From Mustelus asterias (taxonomy: Eukaryota), in the NCBI RefSeq assembly GCF_964213995.1, contig NW_027590217.1, positions 372,001 to 436,000 of the forward strand: DNA of 64,000 nucleotides, read 5' to 3'. The notes beneath the pieces are model-generated. The model saw only the letters and a list, made by a program, of their open reading frames with translations. It did no database searches and was not told the origin of the DNA. Below are positions 2,971-54,755 of this stretch, piece by piece; the stretch's first letter is position 1; the number at the start of each line of letters is the position of its first letter. The translations under genes were made by a program, and so were the position numbers.

Positions 2971-3174
2971 TCGGGTGAATCGAAGCCCCCAGATCAGGTG
3001 AAGTGAAAAGCTTAAAATGCCAGTAGTTTGTTGCCATTCAACTGTGTGTGTGTTTGTAACCTAATGATTGGAATTAGAGAGTTGGAGAATAAGATGTGGG
3101 GATCAATTGGAGATAAACCCTGGCTTTATAGTGTGTGTTTGTTATCATTGAATTGAAAATTAAAGTCTGGTCAC

Positions 3175-3317
3175 CTTGACGACAGTAACAAAGGTGCTGT
3201 AGAGGAAACTGAGAATAAACAGAATGGCAAAGGCAGCAACTGTCAGTGCGTTGTCATCTCCCTCCAAGTCTCCCATTTCTTCCTTTCCTTCCTCTCCTGT
3301 CTCATCTGGAGGTTTCT
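3175..3317 (-). CDS. IgW: IgW transmembrane exon TM1
   Basis: tttttctttgtttcag|AG...AAG|gtgacc; EKPPDETGEEGKEEMGDLEGDDNALTVAAFAILFILSFLYSTFVTVVK: acidic spacer plus a hydrophobic helix with the antigen-receptor TM (CART-like) motif F-x-L-S-x-x-YST. Confidence 0.93.
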
Positions 3318-5820: not shown

Positions 5821-6203
5821 TTATGAGCAGGATTTATAGCTCTCGGTCAGGACAAGTGACACATTGACCAGGGTGGGTTTGCTGTGAGATTTATTAATGC
5901 TCCTGAACAGGTTTGTTGTGACTGACTCATGTCCCACCACACAGGAGTAAGTGGTGCCGCTGTTCCACTCGTCCGCAGAGACTGTCAGCTGACTGCCCGA
6001 GTTCCAGCCGCTGCGGCCGTCCTCGGTCACCGGCTGGTTCACGAATCCTGATTTCAGGAGAGTGTCGTTGGCCATCCAGGCCAGGTAGATTTCTGCGGGG
6101 GAGAATCCGGTCACCAGGCACACCAGGGTCGCAGTCTGATCCGTCTCCATCTCATCCGACGAAGGGGGAAGGAGGTAGACTTGAGGCTGAGTCTTAACCT
6201 CAA
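5821..6203 (-). CDS. IgW: IgW CH6 exon plus long-form secretory tailpiece
   Basis: tctttttccag|TT; QPQVYLLPP...ATLVCLVTGFSP...YSCVVGHE, then KPTLVNVSLVLTESYKSCS* (NVS sequon, penultimate Cys). Six CH domains plus a CH1-type first domain indicate IgW rather than IgM or IgNAR. Confidence 0.96.
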
Positions 6204-11085: not shown

Positions 11086-11403
11086 CTTGGATGTTCTTCA
11101 CTGTCTCGTTGCCGTTGGAGTGGGAGGGTGGGTGAGACACAGCGCAGGTGAAAGCTGAGCCTTTCCTCCACTCCACTGTACTCACAGTCAGGTAGTGCCT
11201 GACACTGAATGTCTCTGTCTGCTCCAGAGCGGTGAGCCCAGCACGAGTCTTGGAGGAGATGAGAACACCATCTTTCTCCCAGGTGACATTCACGAGGTCT
11301 GGGTAGAATCCAGTGATCAAACACTCGAGTGTGGCTGTGTTCTTACTCTTCATCTCTTCTTCTGTTGGGGGCAGCAGTCTAACTGTGGGACTTTTTGGCT
11401 TCA
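11086..11403 (-). CDS. IgW: IgW CH4 exon
   Basis: tttgttccag|TG...CAAG|gtatga; 318 nt, after a 90-nt intron; PTVRLLPP...ATLECLITGFYPDLVNVTW...FTCAVSH. Confidence 0.95.
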
Positions 11404-11493
11404 CTGGAACAAATGGGTAAACAATGGAAGTGTTAAACTTTTCCCCCTCAAGCTTACCAAAGTCAGATGATTAATTTCTGAATGTTTGCCCAC

Positions 11494-11796
11494 CTTTTGC
11501 TCTGCTTATCCGTTTCGACACCGGTGCAGACGAGGCAGCACCGTGGACGGAGCACACAAACTCCACCCCGCTCTCCCACTCCTCTGCACTGGTTCGAAGT
11601 TGGCTGACGATAATGTGCAGGCTCCCTTCCCCTGTGGGCGGACGAGTCAAAACTCCGTCACTTCTCCTCTTGTCGCTCACTTCCCAGAGGATCTGGATTG
11701 GGCTCGGATCAGAACAGACGACTGAGCACTCCAGGGTAGCCGTCTTGTTCATCCAAACCTCTCTGATGGAAGGATTTTGGATCAAGACAGACATTT
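11494..11796 (-). CDS. IgW: IgW CH3 exon
   Basis: cattcccag|AA...AAAG|gtgggc; 303 nt; EMSVLIQNPSIREVWMNKTATLECSVVC...SAEEWESGVEFVCSV. Confidence 0.94.
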
Positions 11797-16100: not shown

Positions 16101-16400
16101 CCTCTCGGTATCTCAAGCTGATCCCGCGGTTGAAGTTCGAAGGTGTGTGGGTCACTTGACAAACGTAGACATCTCCTCTCTTCCAATCCGCCACAGGGAC
16201 TGTCAGGTAAGAGACCGTTTTGAATGTATCGCCGGGTCTCTGTTTGGAAGGTAATAAAACATCGACTTGGACTTGTCCGGCTTTAGTCCAGGAAACCTGT
16301 ACGCTGTTGGGATAGAATCCGGATATCACACATCCCAGGACGGCAGTAGTTTGGTTGTAGACAGTCTCCAGGGATGGAACCAGTGGGATGATCTTGGGGG
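16101..16400 (-). CDS. IgW: IgW CH2 exon
   Basis: ccacag|CC...GAGG|gtaagt; 300 nt; PPKIIPLVP...AVLGCVISGFYPNSVQVSW...YLTVPVADWKRGDVYVCQVTH. Confidence 0.95.
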
Positions 16401-19312: not shown

Positions 19313-19633
19313 GTTTAGGTTGAGGTTTTTGGATCTGAGCTGCCACCATTGCGTTGGGGTCGTAGCCCGCCTTGCAGTGGTAGGCCCGATTGGTATTCCA
19401 ATCCGACGCAGAGACTTTGAGCACACTGCTCATCGTATATTTCATGTTTTGCCCCAAGGTCGCCGGATACTTTATGATTCCAGTATTGATGTTTCCGCTG
19501 CTACTGGACCATGTCTGACTGATGCTCTCAGGCTGAAAGTCCTTGACCAGACAGAGCAGGCTGATTTCATCTTGGTTGGAGCTTGTCTCACAGAAAGGGC
19601 TGGAGATGTAAACTGATGGTGTGACCTGGACAT
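19313..19633 (-). CDS. IgW: IgW CH1 exon
   Basis: ttttcag|AT...AAAC|gttagt; 321 nt, open: [42 protein letters not shown]...[22 protein letters not shown]...QPK. C1-set C/W/C plus an N-terminal Cys suited to light-chain linkage. Confidence 0.93.
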
Positions 19634-21293
19634 CTGAAAAGTAAATAGATGTACACAGATAAGCTCAGTAAACAAATAAGACCATAAGATATAGGAGCAG
19701 AATTAGGCCACTCGGCCCATTGAGTCTGTTCCGCCATTCATCCCCATTCTCCTGCCTTTTCCCCATCACCCCCAATCCCCTTATTAATCAAGAACCTATC
19801 TATCTGCCTTAAAGACACTCAATGACCCGGCCTCCACAGCCTTCTGTGGCAAAGAGTTCCACAGATTCACCACTCTCTGACTGAAGAAATTCCTCTTCAT
19901 CTCTGTTTTAAAGGATCGTCCCTTTAGCCTGAGGTTGTGCCCTCTGGTTCTAGTTTTTCCTACTAGTGGAAACATCCTCTCCACGCCCACTCTATCCAGG
20001 CCTCGCAGTATCCTGTAAGTTTCAATAAGATCCCCCCTCATCCTTCTAAACTCCAACGAGTACAGACCCAGAGTCCTCAACCGTTCCTCATACGACAAGC
20101 TCTTCATTCCAGGGATCATTCTTGTGAACCTCCTCTGGACCCTTTCCAAGGCCGGCACATCCTTCCTTAGATACGGGGCCCAAAACTGCTCATAATACTC
20201 CAAATGGGGTCTGACCAGAGCCTTATACAGACTCAGAAGTACATCCCTGCTCTTGTATTCTCACCCTCTCAACATGAACGTTAACATTGCATTTGCCTTC
20301 CTAACTGCCGACTGAACCTGCACGTGAACCTGAAGAGAATCTTGAACAAGGACTCCCAAGTCCCTTTGTGTTTCTGATTTCCGAAGCATGTTTCCACTGA
20401 GAAAATAGTCTGTGCCTCCATTCCTCCTTCCATTACAATGCGTACAAGCATATAAATTTGGAGCAAGAGAGGTCACTTGGTGCTTCGAGCCCACTCTGCC
20501 ATTCAATACAATCATGGCTCATCTAATTTTAAACTCAACCCCACATCCCAGCCTACCCCCAATAACCAGTGCCCCGTATAACTGAACCATTACCTCTCTA
20601 ACTTCATGTTCAATTCCCCCCTGCACAACAAACAATCAAATTCTGTTGCTTTCCTAATTACTCACTGTCCCTTCAGACTAACATCTTGTGATCAACACAC
20701 TAGGACACCGGATTGTTCTGTGTCTCACAGCTCTGCAATCTCTCACCATTAAAGTAAAATGGCTGAACTTTCCGACCACTCGTGCTGGTGGGATCGTCCA
20801 GTCCTGCTGACGTCACACCCCTCACCGCGGGTTTCACAGCAGTGAGTGCTTCATTCAACTGGAAACCCCGTTGGCAGTGGCGGCACCAGAAGGTCCCACC
20901 GTCAGCCAATGGCAGGCTACCTCCGCGAAATGCAAGGTGGGTTGTGTGGAAAATCCTGTCCCGTGTTTCTTTTTCATTCTTCCTGCCAAGAAGGATATTT
21001 TCACATTTTCCCACATTCTACTCTCTTTGCCATATCTTTGCCCACTCACTTAACATCTTTATCCTTTTGTAGCCTCCTTATGTCCTCTTTAGCTATGACT
21101 GTAACACTACACTCTGTACTCTCTCATTTCCTTCTCTATGAATAGTATGCTTTGTCTGTATAGTGCACAAGAAACAATATTTTTCACTGTATGTTAATAC
21201 AGATGACAAGAATAAATCAAATCAAATCAAAAAATCTTTGGATCATTGACAAATTTAGCCATCATTCCTTCAATCCCTCCACCAAAGTCATTA

Positions 21294-22110
21294 AGATGAA
21301 GTAGAAAAGGTCGAGAGCTTCAAGTTTTTAGGTGTCCAGATCACCAACAACCTGTCCTGGTCCCCCCATGCCGACACTATAGTTAAGAAAGCCCCACCAA
21401 CGCCTCTACTTTCTCAGAAGACTAAGGAAATTTGGCGTGTTAGCTCCGACTCTCACCATCTTTTACAGATGCACCATAGAAAGCATTCTTCCTGGTTGTA
21501 TCACAGCTCGGTATGGGGCTCCTGCTCTGCCCAAGACCGCAAGGAACTACAAAAGGTCATGAATGTAGCCCAATCCATCACGCAAACCAACCTCCCACCA
21601 CTGACTCTGTCTACACTTCCCGCTGCCTCGGGGAAAAGCAGCCGGCATAATTAAGGACCCCCCCCACACCCCGGACATTCTCTCTTCCAGCTTCTTCCAT
21701 CGGGAAGAAGATACAAAAGTCTGAGGTCACGCACCAACCGACTCAAGAACAGCTTCTTCCCTGCTGCTGTCAAGACTTCTGAATGGACCAACCTCGCACT
21801 AAGTTGATCTTGCGTGATGGATTGGGCTACATTCATGACCTTTTGTAGTTCCTTGCAGTCTTGGGCAGAGCAGGAGCCCCAGACCAAACTGTGATACAAC
21901 CAGAAAGAATGCTTTCTATGGTGCATCTGTAAAAGTTGGTGAGAGTCGTAGCTGACATGCCAAATTTCCTTAGTCTTCTGAGAAAGTAGAGGTGTTTGTG
22001 TGGTTTCTTAACTATAGTGTCGGCATGGGGGGGACCAGGACAGGTTGTTGGTGATCTGGACACCTAAAAATTTGAAGCTCTCGACCCTTTCTGCTTCGTT
22101 CTACTTCATC
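21294..22110. mobile_element. Two inverted Rex1/Babar-like fragments in the J-CH1 intron (21294-21808+, 21811-22110-)
   Basis: The same approximately 290-bp RT-end segment is present on both strands. Confidence 0.8.
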
Positions 22111-22810
22111 TGCCATCTACTTAATTTCCATTATTAATTCCCCAGAATCACTTTCTATCGGACCAATGTTCATTTTGTTCACTCATTTCTTTTTTTATTC
22201 ATCTCTTGAAATGCTTATTATCTGTTTTTCTATTTCCAGCTTGCTTTCGCTCTTTCTCTATTTTTCCTCTCATTAATCTGGTCGCCATTCTTTGCTGGTT
22301 TGTACATTGTGTCCAATCTTCTGACCAGCAATGTTTGAACTGCAATAAATAACATTTAAAACCACTCTGACACCAACAATTAAATCATGAGACAATTGTA
22401 TGAAATATTTGAACTCAGATTAGAACAAAATCCTAACCCAACCTGCAAATATCCGAAAATCCAAAATCACCAAACCTGCCCCAACATAATGTCCTGAAAA
22501 CTATAATCTGAATCAAGCAGAACACACTAAACAGATCCGGGAATCGTTATTCGATTCTGAGAATCGATTCTGTGGAGTTAAATCTGAACCTTTGAGAGTA
22601 AATCCAGTTATCAGATTTCAGCTCCAATTACTGGGTATGTTCTTGTCTCTACAGAAATCCAGCTCTCTCAGAGAGAATCATTTCATTGTTCGAAATATCT
22701 CACTGATTTCAGGTAAATCACACATTACAACTGAACAATCAAATTCACTAATAACACAAATTAAAGAAAATAAATGTTGGATAAGAAAGGAATTGAGAAG
22801 TTTGTCTTAC

Positions 22811-22857
22811 CTGAAGTCACTTTCACCAGGGTTCCGCTCCCCCAGTAGTCAAGAGAT
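22811..22857 (-). CDS. IgW: IgW JH segment (SLDYWGSGTLVKVTS)
   Basis: WGxG motif; 47 nt; heptamer immediately 5'; donor TCAG|GTAAGA in phase 1. Confidence 0.96.
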
Positions 22858-22885
22858 CACAGTGCTTCACCCCAGGTCATAAACC
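22858..22885 (+). other. 12-bp-spacer RSS 5' of JH
   Basis: CACAGTG + CTTCACCCCAGG (12 nt) + TCATAAACC (7/9). No nonamer-like word at 22/23-nt spacing. Confidence 0.88.
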
Positions 22886-23000
22886 ACAGGTATAAGATCC
22901 AGCCCAAAATAAAATGACCCAGACAAGCAGCCAGAAGCTTTATTAACTCCTCAGTCTGTATCCGTGTGTGCCCCACACACCAGGTATCAAACTCGGGGTC

Positions 23001-23235
23001 TGTGGTAAACCACTGTTAGCTTATTCCCTATATATGTGACATGCCTGGACACATCCCTGCTGGCCCTACCCGAGACTCCTCCCCCCCCTCGTCCAGGTAT
23101 AAAGGCGACTGCTCCCCACCCCCCTGCCTCAGTCTGGACCAGTTCATCGGCATGGGTGCGCTCCAAGTCTTTTGCTAATAAAAGCCTATTTGTTCTTGCG
23201 TACAAACTAGTCTTTGCTTGATTGCTGGTGCATCA
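23001..23235 (+). mobile_element. Solo LTR (235 bp) between the V and J RSSs
   Basis: TG...CA termini; exact 5-bp direct repeats GGGTC at 22996-23000 and 23236-23240; TATAAA at 23098-23103 followed by AATAAA at 23177-23182. Confidence 0.8.
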
Positions 23236-23465
23236 GGGTCTTTCTGGACTTTACAGGAAGATGAGATGATCCACAAGGAGTTTTCATTGCTCAGCATCCT
23301 CTCGCTGTTACTCACTGAGGTTTCCTCCTTTCCAATAATATCTCCAAAGGAAGTTGTTCACACACCCAGATTATTGAATCAGGATCTGATTTATATCCAC
23401 GGGCCATGAGATAAAGGTCGGTAATATCGCCCGAAAGCTCCAGTTTAAATAGCTCTCCTGTGGCA

Positions 23466-23504
23466 GGTTTTTGAATGGAGGATTCCCCCATCTCTCTCAC
23501 TGTG
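23466..23504 (-). other. 23-bp-spacer recombination signal sequence 3' of V(D)
   Basis: CACAGTG + AGAGAGATGGGGGAATCCTCCAT (23 nt) + TCAAAAACC (8/9 nonamer match). Confidence 0.95.
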
Positions 23505-23820
23505 TCACCCCAGTATCCCTGGCCTCTCGCACAGTAATACATGGCGGTGTCGTCCACTCTCAGATTGGTGATTTCTATGTAAGAGATGGTGCTGCCATTG
23601 GACGGGGTAAATCGACCTTCAATTCCAGGCGCGAAATACTTGCTACTTTCTGAACGATAGTACAGTAACCACTCCAGCCCTTTCCCAGTGACCTGTTTCA
23701 CCCAGTGTATGCCATACTGACTGAGGCTGAACCCACTGACTGCACAGGACAGTTTGACTGACTCCCCCGGCTTTTTCACAACAGACTCGGGCTGGGTCAG
23801 CACGATATCAGACCGGACAC
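23505..23820 (-). CDS. IgW: IgW VH exon with a 20-nt 3' D-like extension
   Basis: Acceptor tttattaacag|GTGTCC. Translates (G)VRSDIVLTQPESVVKKPGESVKLSC...IHWVKQVTGKGLEWL...DTAMYYCAR-GQGYWG with canonical C, W and YYC and no stop. FR1 resembles elasmobranch IgW VH. Confidence 0.95.
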
Positions 23821-23954
23821 CTGTTAATAAAAGAGAGAAAGAAGAGAGTTGACTTTAGTAAACCCCGTTGGATAAACAGATGAATAAAAACGTTGGATAA
23901 AAAGAATCCCTGAGTAATCAGACTGTGTGGGGACAAAGTCCCGGCACCTCTCAC

Positions 23955-24000
23955 CTGTCAGACAGAACAGAAGGACACAGAGATAAGGAGCAGTCCCCAT
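23955..24000 (-). CDS. IgW: IgW heavy-chain leader exon (MGTAPYLCVLLFCLT+G)
   Basis: ATG at 24000; 46-nt hydrophobic signal-peptide exon ending ACAG|GTGAGA in phase 1; 134-nt intron to the V exon. Confidence 0.95.
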
Positions 24001-24321: not shown

Positions 24322-27105
24322 TATATATCTACCTGAGATAGGGACTGAGAGACAGTCAGTGTACAGATATCTCCCTGACAAAGAGGGGACTAAGAGACAC
24401 CAGTCACTGTACAGATATCTCCCTGAGAGAGAGAGAGGGGGAGCTGAGAGACACCAGTCAGTGTACAGAGATCTCCCAGAGAGAGAGGGGGGACTGAGAG
24501 ACACCAGTCAGTGTACAGATAACTCCCTGAGAGAGAGTGGGGCTGAGAGACACCAGTCAGTGTACAGATATTCTCCCTGAAAGAGAGAGAGGGGACTGAG
24601 AGACACCAGTCACTGTACAGATATCTCCCTGAGAGAGAGGGGACTGAGAGACACCTGCTAGTGTACAGATATCTCCCTGAGAGAGAGGAACTGAGAGACA
24701 CCAGTCAGTGTACAGATATCTCCCTGAGAGAGTAAGGGAACTGAGAGACACCTGCTAGTGTACAGATAACTCCCTGAGAGAGAGGAGACTGAGAGACACC
24801 AGTCAGTGTACAGATATCTCCCTGAGAGAGTAAGGGAACTGAGAGACACCTGCGATTGTACAGATATCTCCCTGAGAGAGAGGAGAGTGAGAGACACCAG
24901 TCACTGTACAGATATCTCCCTGAGAGAGAGGGGGGGTCAGAGAGACACCAGTCAGTGTACAGATGTCTCCCTGAGAGAGAGGAGACTGGGAGACACCAGT
25001 CAGTGTACAGATACCTCCTTGAGAGAGACAGGGGACTGAGAGACAGTCAGTATGCAGATAACTCCCTGGGATATAGAGGACTGAGAGACACCAGTCAGTG
25101 TACAGATATCTTCCCGTGAGAGAGAAGGAACTGAGAGATACCAGTCAGTGTACAGATATCTCCCTGAGAGAGAGGGGACTGAGAGACACCAGTCAGTGTA
25201 CAGATATCTCCCTAAGAGAGAGGGGGGACTGAGAGACACCAGTCAGTGTACAGATATCTCCCTGAGAGAGAGGAGACTGAGAGACACCAGTCAGTGTACA
25301 GATATTTCCCTGAGAGAGAGAGAGGGGGGACTGAGAGACATCAGTCAGTGTACGGATATCTCCCTGAGAGAGAGGGGACTGAGAGACACCTGCTAGTGTA
25401 CAGATATCTCCCCGAGAGAGAGGGGACTGAGAGACACCAGTCACTGTACAGATATCTCCCTGAGAGAGAGTGGGGCTGAGAGACACCAGTCAGTATACAG
25501 ATAACTCCCTGAGAGAGAGGGGACTGAGAGATACCAGTCAGTGTACAGATATCTCCCTGAGAGAGAGGGGACTGAGAGACACCTGCTCGTGTACAGATAT
25601 CCCCCTGAGAGAGAGGAACTGAGAGACACCAGTCAGTGTACAGATATCCCCCTGAGAGAGAGTGGGGCTGAGAGACACCAGTCAGTATACAGATAACTCC
25701 CTGAGAGAGAGGGGACTGAGAGACACCAGTCACTGTACAGATATCCCCCTGAGAGAGAGAGGTGGGTCAGAGAGACACCAGTCAGTGTACAGATATCTCC
25801 CTGAGAGAGAGAGGGGGGGTCAGAGAGACACCAGTCAGTGTACAGATATCTCCCTGAGAGAGAGAAGACTGGGAGACACCAATCAATGTACAGATATCTC
25901 CTTGAGAGAGACAGGGGACTGAGAGACAGTCAGTATGCAGATATCTCCCTGAGAGACAGGAGACTGAGAGACACCAGTCCGTGTACAGATATTTCCCTGA
26001 GAGAGAGGAGACTGAGAGACACCAGTCAGTGTACAAATAACTCCCTGAGAGAGAGGGGGCTGAGAGACACCAGTCACTGTGCAGATATCTCCCTGAGAGA
26101 GAGTGGGGCTGAGAGACACCAGTCAGTATACAAATAACTCCCTGAGAGAGAGGGGACTGAGAGACACCAGTCAGTATACAGATAACTCCCTGAGAGAGAG
26201 GGGACTGAGAGACACCAGTCAGTGTACAGATATCTCCCTGAGAGAGAGGGGACTGAGAGAAAGCAGTCAGTGTACAGATATCTCCCTGAGAGAGAGGAGA
26301 CTGAGAGACACCAGTCAGTGTACAGATATCTCTGAGAGGGAACTGAGAGACACCAGTCAGTGTACAGATATCTCCCTGAGAGAGAGGAGACTGAGAGACA
26401 CCAGTCACTGTACAGATATCCCCCTGAGAGAGAGAGGGGGGTCAGAGAGACACCAGTCAGTGTACAGATATCTCCCTGAGAGAGAGATGACTGGGAGACA
26501 CCAATCAATGTACAAATATCTCCTTGAGAGAGACAGGGGACTGAGAGACAGTCAGTATGCAGATAACTCCCTGGGAGATAGAGGACTGAGAGACACCTGT
26601 CACTGTACAGATATCTCCCTGAGAGAGAGGGGACTGAGAGACACCAGTCAGTGTACAGATATCTCCCTGAGAGGGAGGGGTCTGAGAGACACCAGTCAGT
26701 GTACAGATATCTCCCTGAGAGAGAAAGGTCTGAGAGACACCAGTCAGTGTACAGATATCTCTCTGAGAGACAGGGGTCTGCGAGACACCAGTCAGTGTAC
26801 AGATATCCCCCTGAGAGAGAGAGGGGACTGAGAGACACCAGTCAGTGTACAGATATCTCTCTGAGAGAGAGGGGTCTGCGAGACACCAGTCAGTGTACAG
26901 ATATCTCCCTGAGAGATAGAGGACTGAGAGACACCAGTCAGTGTACAGATATCTCCCTGAGAGATAGAGGACTGAGAGACACCAGTCAGTGTACAGATAT
27001 CTCCGTGAGAGAGAGGGGACTGAGAGACAGCCGTCAGTGTACAGATATCTCCCTGAGAGAGAGAGGGGACTGAGAGACACCCGTCAGTCGACAGATATCT
27101 CCGTG
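24322..27105. repeat. About 48-bp minisatellite, about 55-58 copies, just upstream of the VH promoter
   Basis: Unit GAGAGACACCAGTCAGTGTACAGATATCTCCCTGAGAGAGAGGGGACT with variable GA runs. Confidence 0.97.
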
Positions 27106-27109
27106 AATA

Positions 27110-49245: not shown

Positions 49246-49827
49246 TTGCAGAAAACTTAAACTGTTTGCCTGAAGTGAAATTGAAATTTGGGAGATTGCG
49301 GTATTTGAATTAAGTTTGAATTATCGCTTCTTAAATCTCTAAAGGAGCCGTTCTCATTTACTCGAAGCACAGCGACTATTTGTCTAACACTTGACAGATG
49401 TCCGAAACTCAGCGATATCATCAAGACAAGTTCCTTCTCTTTCCACATCCCCTCAGAGAGCAGAGTCAGATTTAATCTGAGCAGGGGGACGTCCCAGAGG
49501 GACTTTGTTACTAAAAAGAATAAGCACCCTGCTTCAAATATGGAAATACCATTCTGATATTGTACTTTGCACCAATAAACAGGTTTATATTGACCCAAAG
49601 GTGACAGACTGGCAGAACTGAAACTCATGGTCAAAAGATGGACAACATCAAGACTTTATCTTCACCTCTGAACTACCTCAAGATGCCACGGACATTCAGA
49701 TTCTTCCACTGAACATGTTCTGAGGAAGTTATGGATAAGAAGTTGGGTTATTGAGTGGGGAATTTTATAATCTCAAATTAAAGTTGTCCGGACAACTTTT
49801 CAGAAGCAGAGTGTGGGAAATCTACAG

Positions 49828-52800
49828 GAACACAGTTACAGCGTGGGACTGTACACAGAGTGAGAGAACTGTACACAAACACAGTGACAGTGTGGGACTG
49901 TACACAGAGTGAGGGAACAGTACACAAACACAGTTACAGTGTGGGACTGTACATAAACACAATGACAGTGTGGGACTGTACACAGAGTGATGGAACTGTC
50001 CAGAAACACAGTGACAGTGTGGGACTGTACACAGAGTGATGGAACTGTACACAAACACAGTGACAGTGTGGGACTGTACACAGAGTGAGGGAACTGTACA
50101 CAAACACAGTGACAGTGTGGGACTGTACACAGAGTGATGGAACTGTCCAGAAACACAGTGGCAGTGTGGGACTGTACACAGAGTGAGGGAACTGTACACA
50201 AACACAGTGACAGTGTGGGACTGTACACAAAGTGAGGGAACTGTACACAAACACAGTTAGTGTGGGACTACACAAAGTGAGGGAACTGTACACGAACACA
50301 GTTACAGTGTGGGACTGTACACAGAGTGAGGGAACTGCACACAAACACAGTTACAGTGTGGGACTGTACACAGAGTGAAGGGACTGTACAGAAACACTGA
50401 CAATTTGGGGCTGTACACAGAGTGAGGGAAGTGTACACAAACACAGTGACAGTGTGGGACTGTACACAGAGTGAGGGAACTGTACACAAACACTGACAGT
50501 GTGGGACTGTACAGAGTGAGGGAACTGTACACAAACAGTGACAGTGAGGCACTGTACACAGCGTGAGGGAACTGTACACAAACACAGTTACAGTGTGGGA
50601 TTGTACACAGTGAGGGAACTGTACACAAACACAGTGACAGTGTGGGACTGTACACAGGGTGAGGGAACTGTACACAAACACAGTTACAGTGTGGGACTGT
50701 ACACAAAGTGAGGGAACTATACGCAAACACAGTGACAGTGTGGGACTGTACACAGAGTGAGGGAACTGTACACAAACACAGTGACAGTGTGGGACTGTAC
50801 ACAGAGTGAGGGAGTTGTACACAAACACGGTGACAGTGTGGGGCTGTACACAGAGTGAGGGAACAGTACACAAACACAGTGACAGTGTGGGACTGTAGAC
50901 AGAGTGAGGGAACTGTACACAAACACAGTTACAGTGTGGGACTGTACACAGAGTGAGGGAACTGTACACACACAATGACAGTGAGGGACTGTACACAGAG
51001 TGAGGGAACTGTACAGAAACAGTTATAGTGTGGGATTGTACACAGTGAGGGAACTGTACACAAACACAGTTACAGTGTGGGACTGTACACAGAGTGAGGG
51101 AACTGTACACAAACACAGTGACAGTGTGGGGCTGTACACAGGGTGAGGGAACTGTACACAAACACAGTGACAGTGTGGGGCTGTACACAGTGAGGGAACT
51201 GTACACAAACACAGTGACAGTGTGGGACGGTACACAGAGTGAGGGAAGTGTACACAAACACAGTTACAGTGTGGGACTGTACACAGAGTGAGGGAACTGT
51301 ACACAAACACAGTGACAGTGTGTGGCTGTACACAGAGTGAGGGAAGTACACAAATACAGTGACAGTGTGGGACTGTACACAGAGTGATGGAACTGTACAG
51401 AAACACAGTGACAGTGTGTGGCTGTACACAGAGTGAGGGAAGTGTACACAAACACAGTGACAGTGTGGGACTGTACACAGAGTGAGGGAACTGTACACAA
51501 ACACAGTGACAGTGTGGGACTGTACACAGAGTGAGGGAACTGTACACAAACACAGTGACAGTGTGTGGCTGTACACAGAGTGAGGGAAGTGTACACAAAT
51601 ACAGTGACAGTGTGGGACTGTACACAGAGTGATGGAACTGTACAGAAACACAGTGACAGTGTGTGGCTGTACACAGAGTGAGGGAAGTGTACACAAACAC
51701 AGTGACAGTGTGGGACTGTACACAGAGTGAGGGAACTGTACACAAACACAGTGACAGTGTGGGACTGTACACAGAGTGAGGGAACTGTACACAAACACAG
51801 TGACAGTGTGGGACTGTACACAGAGTGAGGGAACTGTACACAAACACAGTGACAGTGTGGGACTGTACACAAACACAGTGACAGTGTGGGACTGTACACA
51901 GAGTGAGGGAGCTGTACACACACACAGGAACATAGAACATTACAACGCAGTACAGACCCTTCGGCCCTCGATGTTGCGCCGACCTGTGAAACCAATCTAA
52001 AGCCCATCTAACCTACACTATTCCAACATCATCCATATGTTCATCCAATAACCATTCGAATGCTCTTAATGTTGACGCGTCTACTGCTGCTGCAGGCCGG
52101 GCATTCCACGCCCTTACTCCTCTCTGAGTAAAGAACCTACCTCTAACATCTGTCCTATATCGATCACCCCTCAATTTAAAGCTATGTCCCCTCGTGTTAG
52201 CCATCACCATCAGAGGAAAGAGGCTCTCACTATCCACTCTATCTAATCCTCTGATCATCTTGTATGCCTCTATTAAGTCACCTCTTAACCTTCTTCTCTC
52301 TAACGAAAACAACCTCAAGCCCCTCAGCCTTTCCTCATATGATTTTCCCACCATCCCAGGCAACATCCTGGTAAATATCCTCTGCACCCTTTCCAACGCT
52401 TCCACATCTTTCCTATTATGTGGCGACCAGAACTGTACGCAATACTCCAAGTGCGGCCACACCAGAGGTTTGTACAGTTGCAACATGACGTCCTGGCTCC
52501 GAAACTCAATCCCTCTACCAATAAAAGCTAACACACCGTACGCCTTCTTAACAACCCTATCAACCGAGGTGCCAACTTTCAGGGATCTATGCACATGGAC
52601 ACCCAGATCCCTCTGCTCATCCACACTACCAAGTATCTTACCATTTGCCCAGTACTCTGTATTCCTGTTACTCCTTCCAAAGTGAATCACCTCACACTTT
52701 TCCGCATTAAACTCCATCTGCCACCTCTCAGCCCAGCTCTGCAGCTTATCTATGTCCCTCTGTAACCTGCCACTTCCCTCCACACTGTCTACAACTCCAC

Positions 52801-54755
52801 CGACTGGAGTGTCACATAAGAACATAAGAAATAGGAGCAGGAGTGGGCCATCTAGCCCCTCGAGCCTGCCCCGCCATTCAATAAGATCATGGCTGATCTG
52901 ACGTGGATCAGTACCACTTACCCGCCTGATCCCCATAACCCTTAATTCCCTTACCGATCAGGAATCCATCCATCCGCGCTTTAAACATATTCAGCGAGGT
53001 AGCCTCCACCACCTCAGTGGGCAGAGAATTCCAGAGATTCACCACCCTCTGGGAGAAGAAGTTCCTCCTCAACTCTGTCTTAAACCGACCCCTTTATTTT
53101 GAGGCTGTGTCCTCTAGTTTTAACTTCCTTACTAAGTGGAATCTCTCCGCCTCCACCCTATCCAGCCCCCGCATTATCTTATAAGTCTCCATAAGATCCC
53201 CCCATATCCTTCTAAACTCCAACGAGTACAAACCCAATCTCCTCAGCCTCTCCTCATAATCCAAACCCCTCATCTCCGGTATCAACCTGGTGAACCTTCT
53301 CTGCACTCCCTCCAATGCCAATATATCCTCATATAAGGGGACCAATACTGCACACAGTATTCCAGCTGCGGCCTCACCAATGCCCTGTACAGGTGCATCA
53401 AGACATCCCTGCTTTTATATTCTATGCCCTTCGCAATATAAGCCAACATCCCATTTGCCTTCTTGATCACCTGTTGTACCTGCAGACTGGGCTTTTGCGT
53501 CTCATGCACAAGGACCCCCAGGTCCCTTTGCACGGTAGCATGTTTTAATTTGTTTCCATTGAGAAAGTAATCCCATTTGTTATTATTTCCTCCAAAGTGT
53601 ATAACCTCGCATTTCTCAACGTTATACTCCATTTGCCATATCCTCGCCCACTCACTCAGCCTGTCCAAATCTCTCTGCAGATCTTCTCCGTCCTCCACAC
53701 GATTCACTTTTCCACTTATCTTTGTGTCGTCTGCAAACTTCGTTACCCGCAAATTTACTCACCCATCCTTCTACGCCCTCATCCAGGTCATTAATAAAAA
53801 TGACAAACAGCAGTGGCCCTAAAACAGATCCTTGCTGTACACCACTCGTAACTGAACTCCAGGATGAATATTTCCCATCAACCACCACCCTCTGTTTTCT
53901 TCCAGCTCGCCAATTCCTGATCCAAACCACTAAATCACCCTCAATCCCATGTGTCCGTATTTTCTGCAAAAGTTTACCACGGGGAACCTTCTCAAACGCT
54001 TTGCTGAAATCCATAAACACATCAACCGCTTTACCCTCATCCACCTCTTTGGTCACCTTCTCAAAGAACTCAAGAAGGTTTGTGAGGCACGACCTACCCT
54101 TCACAAAACCGTGCTGACTATCCCTAATCAAATTATTCCTTTCCAGGTGATTATAAATCCTATCTCTTATAATCCTTTCCAATACTTTGCCCACAATAGA
54201 AGTAAGGCTCACCAGTTACCAGGATTGTCCCTACTCCCCTTTTTGAACAAGGGGACAACATTTGCTATCCTCCAGTATTCTGGCTACAGTGTGGGACTGT
54301 GCACAGAGTGAGGGAACTGTACAGAAACACAGTGACAGTGTGGGACTGTACACAGAGTGAGGGAACTGTACACAAACACAGTGACAGTGTGGGACTGTAC
54401 ACAGTGAGGGAACTGTACACAAACACTGAAAGTGTGGGACTGTACACAGAGAGGGAACTGTACACAAACACAGTGACAGTGTGGGGCTGTACACAGAGTG
54501 AGGGAACTGTTCACAAACACTGACAGTGTGGGGCTGTACACAGAGTGAGGGAACTGTACACAAACACAGTGACAGTGTGGGACTGTACACAGAGAGAGGG
54601 AACTGTACACAAACACAGTGACAGTGTGGGACTGTACACAGAGTGAGGGAACTGTACACAAACACAGTGACAGTGTGGGGCTGTACACAGAGTGAGGGAG
54701 CTGTACACAAACACAGTGACAGTGTGGGGCTGTACACAGAGGGAGGGAGCTGTAC
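49828..54755. repeat. 49-bp minisatellite (49828-51925, about 43 copies; 54286-54755, about 10 copies) split by CR1 insertions
   Basis: Unit ACAGTGACAGTGTGGGACTGTACACAGAGTGAGGGAACTGTACACAAAC. Confidence 0.97.
51927..54285 (-). mobile_element. CR1 with a second CR1 (52815-53745) nested inside
   Basis: Outer RT is split near its FADD region. The inner copy is nearly identical to 57166-57853. Confidence 0.88.

Follow-up and report, generated by a model that had tools for sequence, protein, structure and literature searches.

An IgW cluster in 64 kb of Mustelus asterias DNA (the whole stretch analysed, hereafter the window) drew attention because its VH exon, read on the minus strand, continues past TGT GCG AGA (CAR) for 20 in-frame nucleotides (GQGYWG) before a 23-RSS is reached; this feature of a preliminary description was found again exactly as described. 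The locus raises the question of which rearrangement steps are already present in the DNA, whether they are inherited, and what would be left to a B cell.

Organization of the IgW cluster

The elements of the cluster are collected in Table 1. The 23-RSS has one mismatch to the consensus and is the sole 22/23-RSS with at most one mismatch in the whole 64 kb; the 12-RSS has two mismatches. The distance from nonamer to nonamer is 580 bp, or 340 bp after removal of a 240-bp insertion made of a solo LTR and one 5-bp target duplication, and no further RSS lies between the two nonamers, in agreement with the earlier failure to find an RSS-flanked D in this interval.

Table 1. Features of the IgW cluster in the window (window positions; L024 and L025 are the two paralogous clusters described in the text)
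Feature	Position	Strand	Remarks
Leader exon, ATG to GT, phase 1	23955..24000	-	46/46 identical to L024 and L025
IgW VH exon to CAR, ends TGT GCG AGA	23525..23820	-	about 4 nt of V end lost if paralogue-like
V-D1 junction, 20 nt, GQGYWG	23505..23524	-	about 8 G/C-rich bases, then D1-like 3' part; boundary putative
23-RSS, the D1 3' signal	23466..23504	-	identical to both L025 D1 copies
D1-D2 spacer, retained	22886..23465	-	about 97% to L025 outside the insertion
Solo LTR (TG..CA), 235 bp	23001..23235	+	high-copy family; absent in L024 and L025
LTR 5-bp target duplication	22996-23000 and 23236-23240		
12-RSS, the D2 5' signal, facing D1	22858..22885	-	identical to L025 D2 5' RSS
D2-J junction	22855..22857	-	D2 remnant AT and one extra base (two if J began L025-like)
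JH (LDYWGSGTLVKVTS)	22811..22854	-	own 23-RSS lost; GT donor intact, at 22810
C1, second IgW C1 type	19313..19633	-	81% aa to Triakis IgW protein, 63-64% to paralogues
C2 with read-through into cysteine-containing tail	16101..16400	-	putative short form, 378 aa
C3 (11796-11494) and C4 (11403-11086)	11086..11796	-	sequence mapping, open frame
C5	8450..8770	-	sequence mapping, open frame
C6, secretory tail and stop	5821..6203	-	sequence mapping, open frame
Transmembrane exon 1	3166..3317	-	3' end approximate; only one TM exon located

The leader intron exceeds that of either paralogue by 15 nt (window 23884-23900). A 48-bp satellite (24341-27106) lies directly upstream of the promoter, and the same repeat is found upstream of L024 and L025. 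Farther away, a 49-bp satellite (49810-51900 and 54286-54755) consists of units that resemble a 12-RSS, with a heptamer-like word, 12 nt and a nonamer-like word; dozens of copies stand at two to four mismatches. A bacterial promoter scan and a PDB search gave nothing informative for the window cluster.

Two joins made and one step left

A search of the animal's own genome assembly (G000) with the V end and its flank returned 23 matches, the close ones being two other clusters on the same contig, L024 and L025, both unjoined. L024 follows the plan V-23, 12-D1-22, 12-D2-12, 23-J, and L025 has the same plan with a tandem second copy of D1; thus the order V-D1-D2-J with 23/12-23/12-12/23 signals is present in both (the D1 spacer of L024 being 22), and its remnants are present in the window. 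The window 23-RSS is identical at 39/39 positions to the 3' signal of both L025 D1 copies, and the window 12-RSS at 28/28 positions to the 5' signal of L025 D2. The D1 3' signal occurs at four places in G000, all of them IgW D1 (reversed control, 0), and about 210 bp of flank behind the window 23-RSS are D1 flank. In both paralogues J bears its own 23-RSS, about 410 bp past D2. From these matches it follows that V has been joined to D1, with the loss of about 750 bp, and that D2 has been joined to J, which removed about 410 bp, among them the 23-RSS of J. The window gene is therefore VD1-D2J (VD-DJ), with two joins made and one D1-D2 step left. A VD-J gene with a 12-RSS borne by J is ruled out, since that signal belongs to D2 in both paralogues. 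Hence the V-to-D join of the preliminary description holds, with D1 and not the last D as the joined segment, and its single remaining 23/12 step is likewise there, only that it leads from D1 to D2 and not from D to J.

Both paralogous V segments end 4 nt past CAR, each with its own RSS, so about 4 nt of the window V were lost; the 1-3 nt quoted earlier as the usual end of a germline VH does not describe these genes. Neither of these unjoined IgW VH genes carries the long 3' end seen in the window, as the earlier reading implied, and a long germline V end was accordingly rejected as the source of the extension. A likeness between L025 D1 and the final 12 bases of the extension appears only if gaps are allowed, and the paralogous D1 cores, of 15 and 24 nt, are strongly unlike each other, so that neither the donor D1 nor the limits of an N region can be recovered. 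Seven of the first eight or so bases are G or C, no template for them was found, and we infer that they are N bases. A paralogous D matching GGATACTGGGGTGA had been named as a check on the V-to-D join; no exact match was found, and the V-D1 join stands all the same because the RSS and the adjoining flank are those of D1. A donor D elsewhere in the genome was also considered: with up to two mismatches the search gave 173 matches (27 for the control), and of nine loci examined among the ten listed with one mismatch, eight were 5' ends of SINEs and none had a nonamer, so that no supported source emerged among the matches examined.

At the other joint, two of the seven D2 bases (AT) are followed by one or two extra bases and then by J, which is trimmed by 4 if its start was L024-like; what had been taken for a plain J behind the 12-RSS is thus a D2-J product. 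With this second join both ends of CDR3 are fixed, and not one half as first supposed. A flush D1-D2 join is in frame, as claimed, and the CDR3 then reads CARGQGYWGESLDYW; being a one-in-three event, this says nothing about selection.

RAG requires the pairing of a 23 with a 12 signal. Both deletions in the window have their ends at coding ends, V/D1 in one case and D2/J in the other, each representing a 23 + 12 pair; they obey the 12/23 rule, and the inner signals of the cluster are kept unchanged.

Some features of the paralogues themselves were also recorded. The D1 duplication of L025 (L025:3580-4320; G000:C185:587079-587819) retains both signals, 717 bp apart, so this cluster is V-D1-D1-D2-J, with room for an extra join. 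At the heptamer, J of L025 (2762) is 5 nt shorter than J of L024 (3351), and the differing D1 cores lie amid near-identical flanks; these differences could be scars of cutting and resealing at the signals. The 5' end of a common SINE (L033-L041) holds a perfect RSS heptamer, and one copy is located in the V-D1 spacer of L025 (L025:4860-4880).

Isotype and integrity of the gene

The assignment to IgW and the description of the gene as intact were both borne out by V and C matches and by the open exons. The best named match of the window V is a Heterodontus IgW V (65%), and identity with Triakis and Carcharhinus IgW V is 69-71%; the six C exons map in open frame to Carcharhinus P0037 and Triakis P0038 at 60-96%, and the C exons, secretory tail and TM exon map also to Squalus IgW and to a paralogue model. 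Leader, V, J, the six C exons and the one TM exon are all open; the flush-joined long form has 784 aa, one terminal stop and canonical splice sites throughout. The C2 read-through tail contains three Cys, in a sequence unlike the tails of P0042 and P0064. Upstream of the cluster, 312 of 317 aligned bases agree with L024.

Of 464 candidates in G000, 150 were scored, and three C1 exons passed E 1e-12; among the C1 scored the window cluster is the only one of the three IgW clusters with the second C1 type. In a 12-row tree the window C1 groups with a Triakis IgW protein at 85/89, which is short of the starred level, and falls outside a well-supported group (96/93) formed by a paralogue, Carcharhinus and the other Triakis chain. 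The Triakis chain that shares the C1 type has an unrelated CDR3, CARDRMGGAW; this one sequence is a hint that the C1 type predates the joins.

The cluster has a mosaic appearance (window 19313-22325): its agreement with the paralogues is about 92-98% from the upstream region to 486 bp past J, gives way to the older second type in C1 and the beginning of C2, and exceeds 90% again in the remainder. The similarity to the paralogue ends 486 bp after J and returns near C1 (76%) and C2 (94%). A fresh class-switch product was rejected, since this C1 type is also found in Triakis and the three C1 correspond to three V; an old mosaic is the better fit.

In protein searches no CDR3 like that of the window was found, and none of 27 listed IgW CDR3s starts with GQGYW. 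Annotated models cover the paralogues only, and their CDR3s look like gene-model artefacts, with the J heptamer read as STV.

Probable origin of the joins and possible use of the gene

The explanation that we hold with high confidence is that of an intact IgW VD1-D2J cluster, whose joins, of the RAG type, were likely made in an ancestral germ cell and since inherited, and which would need one D1-D2 join in a B cell to be expressed. RAG would have made the cuts there in a single event or in two separate ones; end-joining would have trimmed the segments (about 4 nt of V, 5 of D2 and 0-4 of J), bases of the TdT type were probably added at the joints, and the joined allele would since have been passed on through the germline. 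A single 23/12 join in a B cell would then remove the 646-bp D1-D2 stretch, LTR included; about one third of such joins would be in frame, and the CDR3, of the predicted form CARGQGY(WG)-n-(S)LDYW, would vary only in its middle. As far as the DNA allows a prediction, the product would be a semi-invariant IgW.

The joins may also be neutral accidents in an inherited cluster that yields no protein and has as yet no visible lesion; this is compatible with the favoured explanation as to origin, differs from it as to use, and is considered a possibility of some weight, although not the probable outcome. It would suit the presence of an LTR within the D1-D2 spacer; however, the exons, the splice sites, both RSS and the upstream region are intact, and the cluster is the sole locus of a C1 type that is recorded as a protein in Triakis. 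A bolder reading, which we regard as rather unlikely, makes the gene a working, recent and perhaps segregating VD-DJ allele, produced by RAG and TdT in a shark germ cell at the sole locus of one IgW constant-region type; that entire subclass would then be restricted to one V and a CDR3 of the type CARGQGYW...LDYW, and some conspecifics might retain an unjoined form of the locus.

Inherited or somatic

According to PMC2435157, VD-DJ is a normal somatic intermediate in thymocytes and spleen of the nurse shark, so a somatic origin had to be tested: the assembly would then hold the two-step intermediate of a lymphocyte clone or of an early mosaic. Four public read runs were compared with the region; one of them, X1, probably comes from the assembled animal, without recorded tissue, and is thus not independent, and the other runs are shallow (depth about 5). 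In X1 the depth of the window-type J is 17.6, that of both paralogues combined being 32; for V the window type stands at 20 and the paralogues at 20.3 and 23.3. The joined form thus appears to be present at about single-locus depth, which makes a stray lymphocyte unlikely.

Contigs spanning the junctions in X1 were inferred from contig ends and bin sums. Six contig ends (22822, 22856, 22969, 23365, 23504 and 23541) coincide with branch points that a 31-mer graph of the three IgW loci, in their assembled form, predicts, and L024 and L025 alone predict none of them; two more ends, 23677 and 23744, are predicted by neither graph. The end at 22856 needs a non-paralogue base beside the AT of D2, as in the D2-J join. 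At V-D1 the bin sums favour a junction contig (implied depth 54, against 82 without it, with three D1 copies), whereas at D2-J they also fit the unjoined model (implied depth 50-54) and do not separate joined from unjoined. In G000 there is no unjoined copy of the window locus: three close V, three C1 and four D1 signals were found. The depth and branch points in X1, together with this lack of an unjoined counterpart, argue against a somatic origin and agree with the earlier statement that the join is probably inherited.

One contig of another sample, record 17 of X3 (depth 5.4), points the other way: it starts within the LTR, reaches 22856 at the AT of D2 and continues with 132 letters unlike the window, suggesting an LTR-bearing allele without this D2-J join. 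The record may represent such an unjoined allele, so that the sample of X3 may lack the D2-J join, or else a chimera with the paralogues at low depth. A hypermutation signature was sought and rejected: the window V has 12 private changes, against 11 and 24 in the paralogues, hence no excess, and WRC/GYW motifs hold 7 of the 23 G/C changes where they make up 159 of 719 sites (22%), which is no clear bias towards AID hotspots. J and the first 325 bp of its intron contain 14 private changes, two of them tandem pairs, and these few tandem changes near J would suit a somatic history; three apparent private changes at 23318-23320 are an alignment effect, common to one L025 D1 copy. The TLVKV of the window J, however, is also present in IgW proteins of Triakis and Scyliorhinus, and those differences from the paralogous J are therefore old. 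Partial rearrangements are, moreover, described as infrequent in shark B cells in PMC2435157. Taken together, capture of a somatic intermediate is improbable.

Partial joining was also surveyed at 46 IgM-type loci of the same genome (40 matches out of 107 candidates, and six from a V-end search), with classes read by hand from marker positions; L007 and L011, which have other V types, were left out of the count. Thirty-three loci are unjoined, three unresolved and ten partly joined (three V-D-DJ, two V-DDJ, two VDD-J, two V-DD-J and one VD-D-J), and the VD-DJ state was found at none of the 46. Partial joins are thus common in the M. asterias genome. Two junctions recur identically on two contigs each (L018/L020 and L055/L057), as expected of inherited joins. 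In one stretch, L046/L017 (G000:C138:216623-219803), an IgM D1 is fused to 10 further bases followed by a different 23-RSS, and no IgM J was seen in the stretch examined; a segment from a locus of a different type may have been joined here. The IgM cluster L054 (G000:C127:488782-491961) has two D2-like segments instead of D1 and D2.

Deletions from short homologies, without RAG, were also weighed. The V and D1 3' signals of the paralogues share CACAGTGAG, their D2 and J signals share AGCAC.GTGA, and the last bases of the extension with the heptamer resemble the common SINE 5' end, and the paralogues have one such SINE in their V-D1 spacer. Such events would, however, leave the V end or the J start whole and without added bases; in the window V is trimmed and followed by 20 new bases, the AT of D2 is kept before a trimmed J, and both events follow the 12/23 rule, which makes this origin highly improbable. 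An assembly artefact, for which three similar clusters on one contig of unplaced size and tandem arrays upstream might be adduced, is scarcely credible, as no paralogue contains the junction sequence and the ends of short-read contigs agree with the assembly.

Comparison with known systems

The VD-DJ layout itself is not new: the review PMC5192425 names VD-J and VD-DJ among the states in which shark and skate IgM clusters occur in the germline, and the VD-DJ clusters there share with the window gene the V-D1-D2-J background and the retained signals of the last step. Unlike them, the window gene is IgW and intact; it belongs to a set of only three IgW clusters and is alone in its C1 type. No germline-joined IgW turned up in the literature searched, and PMC12227049 contributed nothing on joins. 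The IgW chains of Carcharhinus (P0037) and Triakis (P0038 and P0054) match the window gene in V, six C, secretory tail, TM exon and, it may be, a short-form tail, and differ in CDR3, none starting with GQGYW among the 27 listed.

The somatic 2R VD-DJ intermediates of nurse shark IgM have the same structure, with trimmed joints and added bases (PMC2435157); those are cell-specific, whereas the window form appears to be present at about locus depth in one read set. For germline joining itself, PMC4279169 gives an account by RAG in germ cells, and PMC2193156 proposes the same origin for joined light chains, with little TdT activity. The NS4 (kappa) light chains of nurse shark treated there were likewise joined from split genes, but they are fully joined and show little TdT, whereas the V-D1 joint of the window has about eight untemplated-looking, G/C-rich bases.

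Pre-joined shark heavy chains are thus known; for the joined H chains of horn shark, PMC2193156 notes that no expression was detected. For the use of partly joined heavy chains the window gene offers a clean test case, being intact, single-copy, LTR-marked and provided with its own C1; the two close unjoined paralogues serve as controls, and the CDR3 tag is searchable in RNA. Should the allele prove to segregate, a date could be set for a RAG event in a germ cell, and it would become apparent whether TdT was involved. The nurse shark IgM1gj (PMC4279169, PMC5192425) is likewise a pre-joined heavy chain with fixed CDR3 residues; it is, however, fully joined and needs no RAG, whereas the window gene requires one join.
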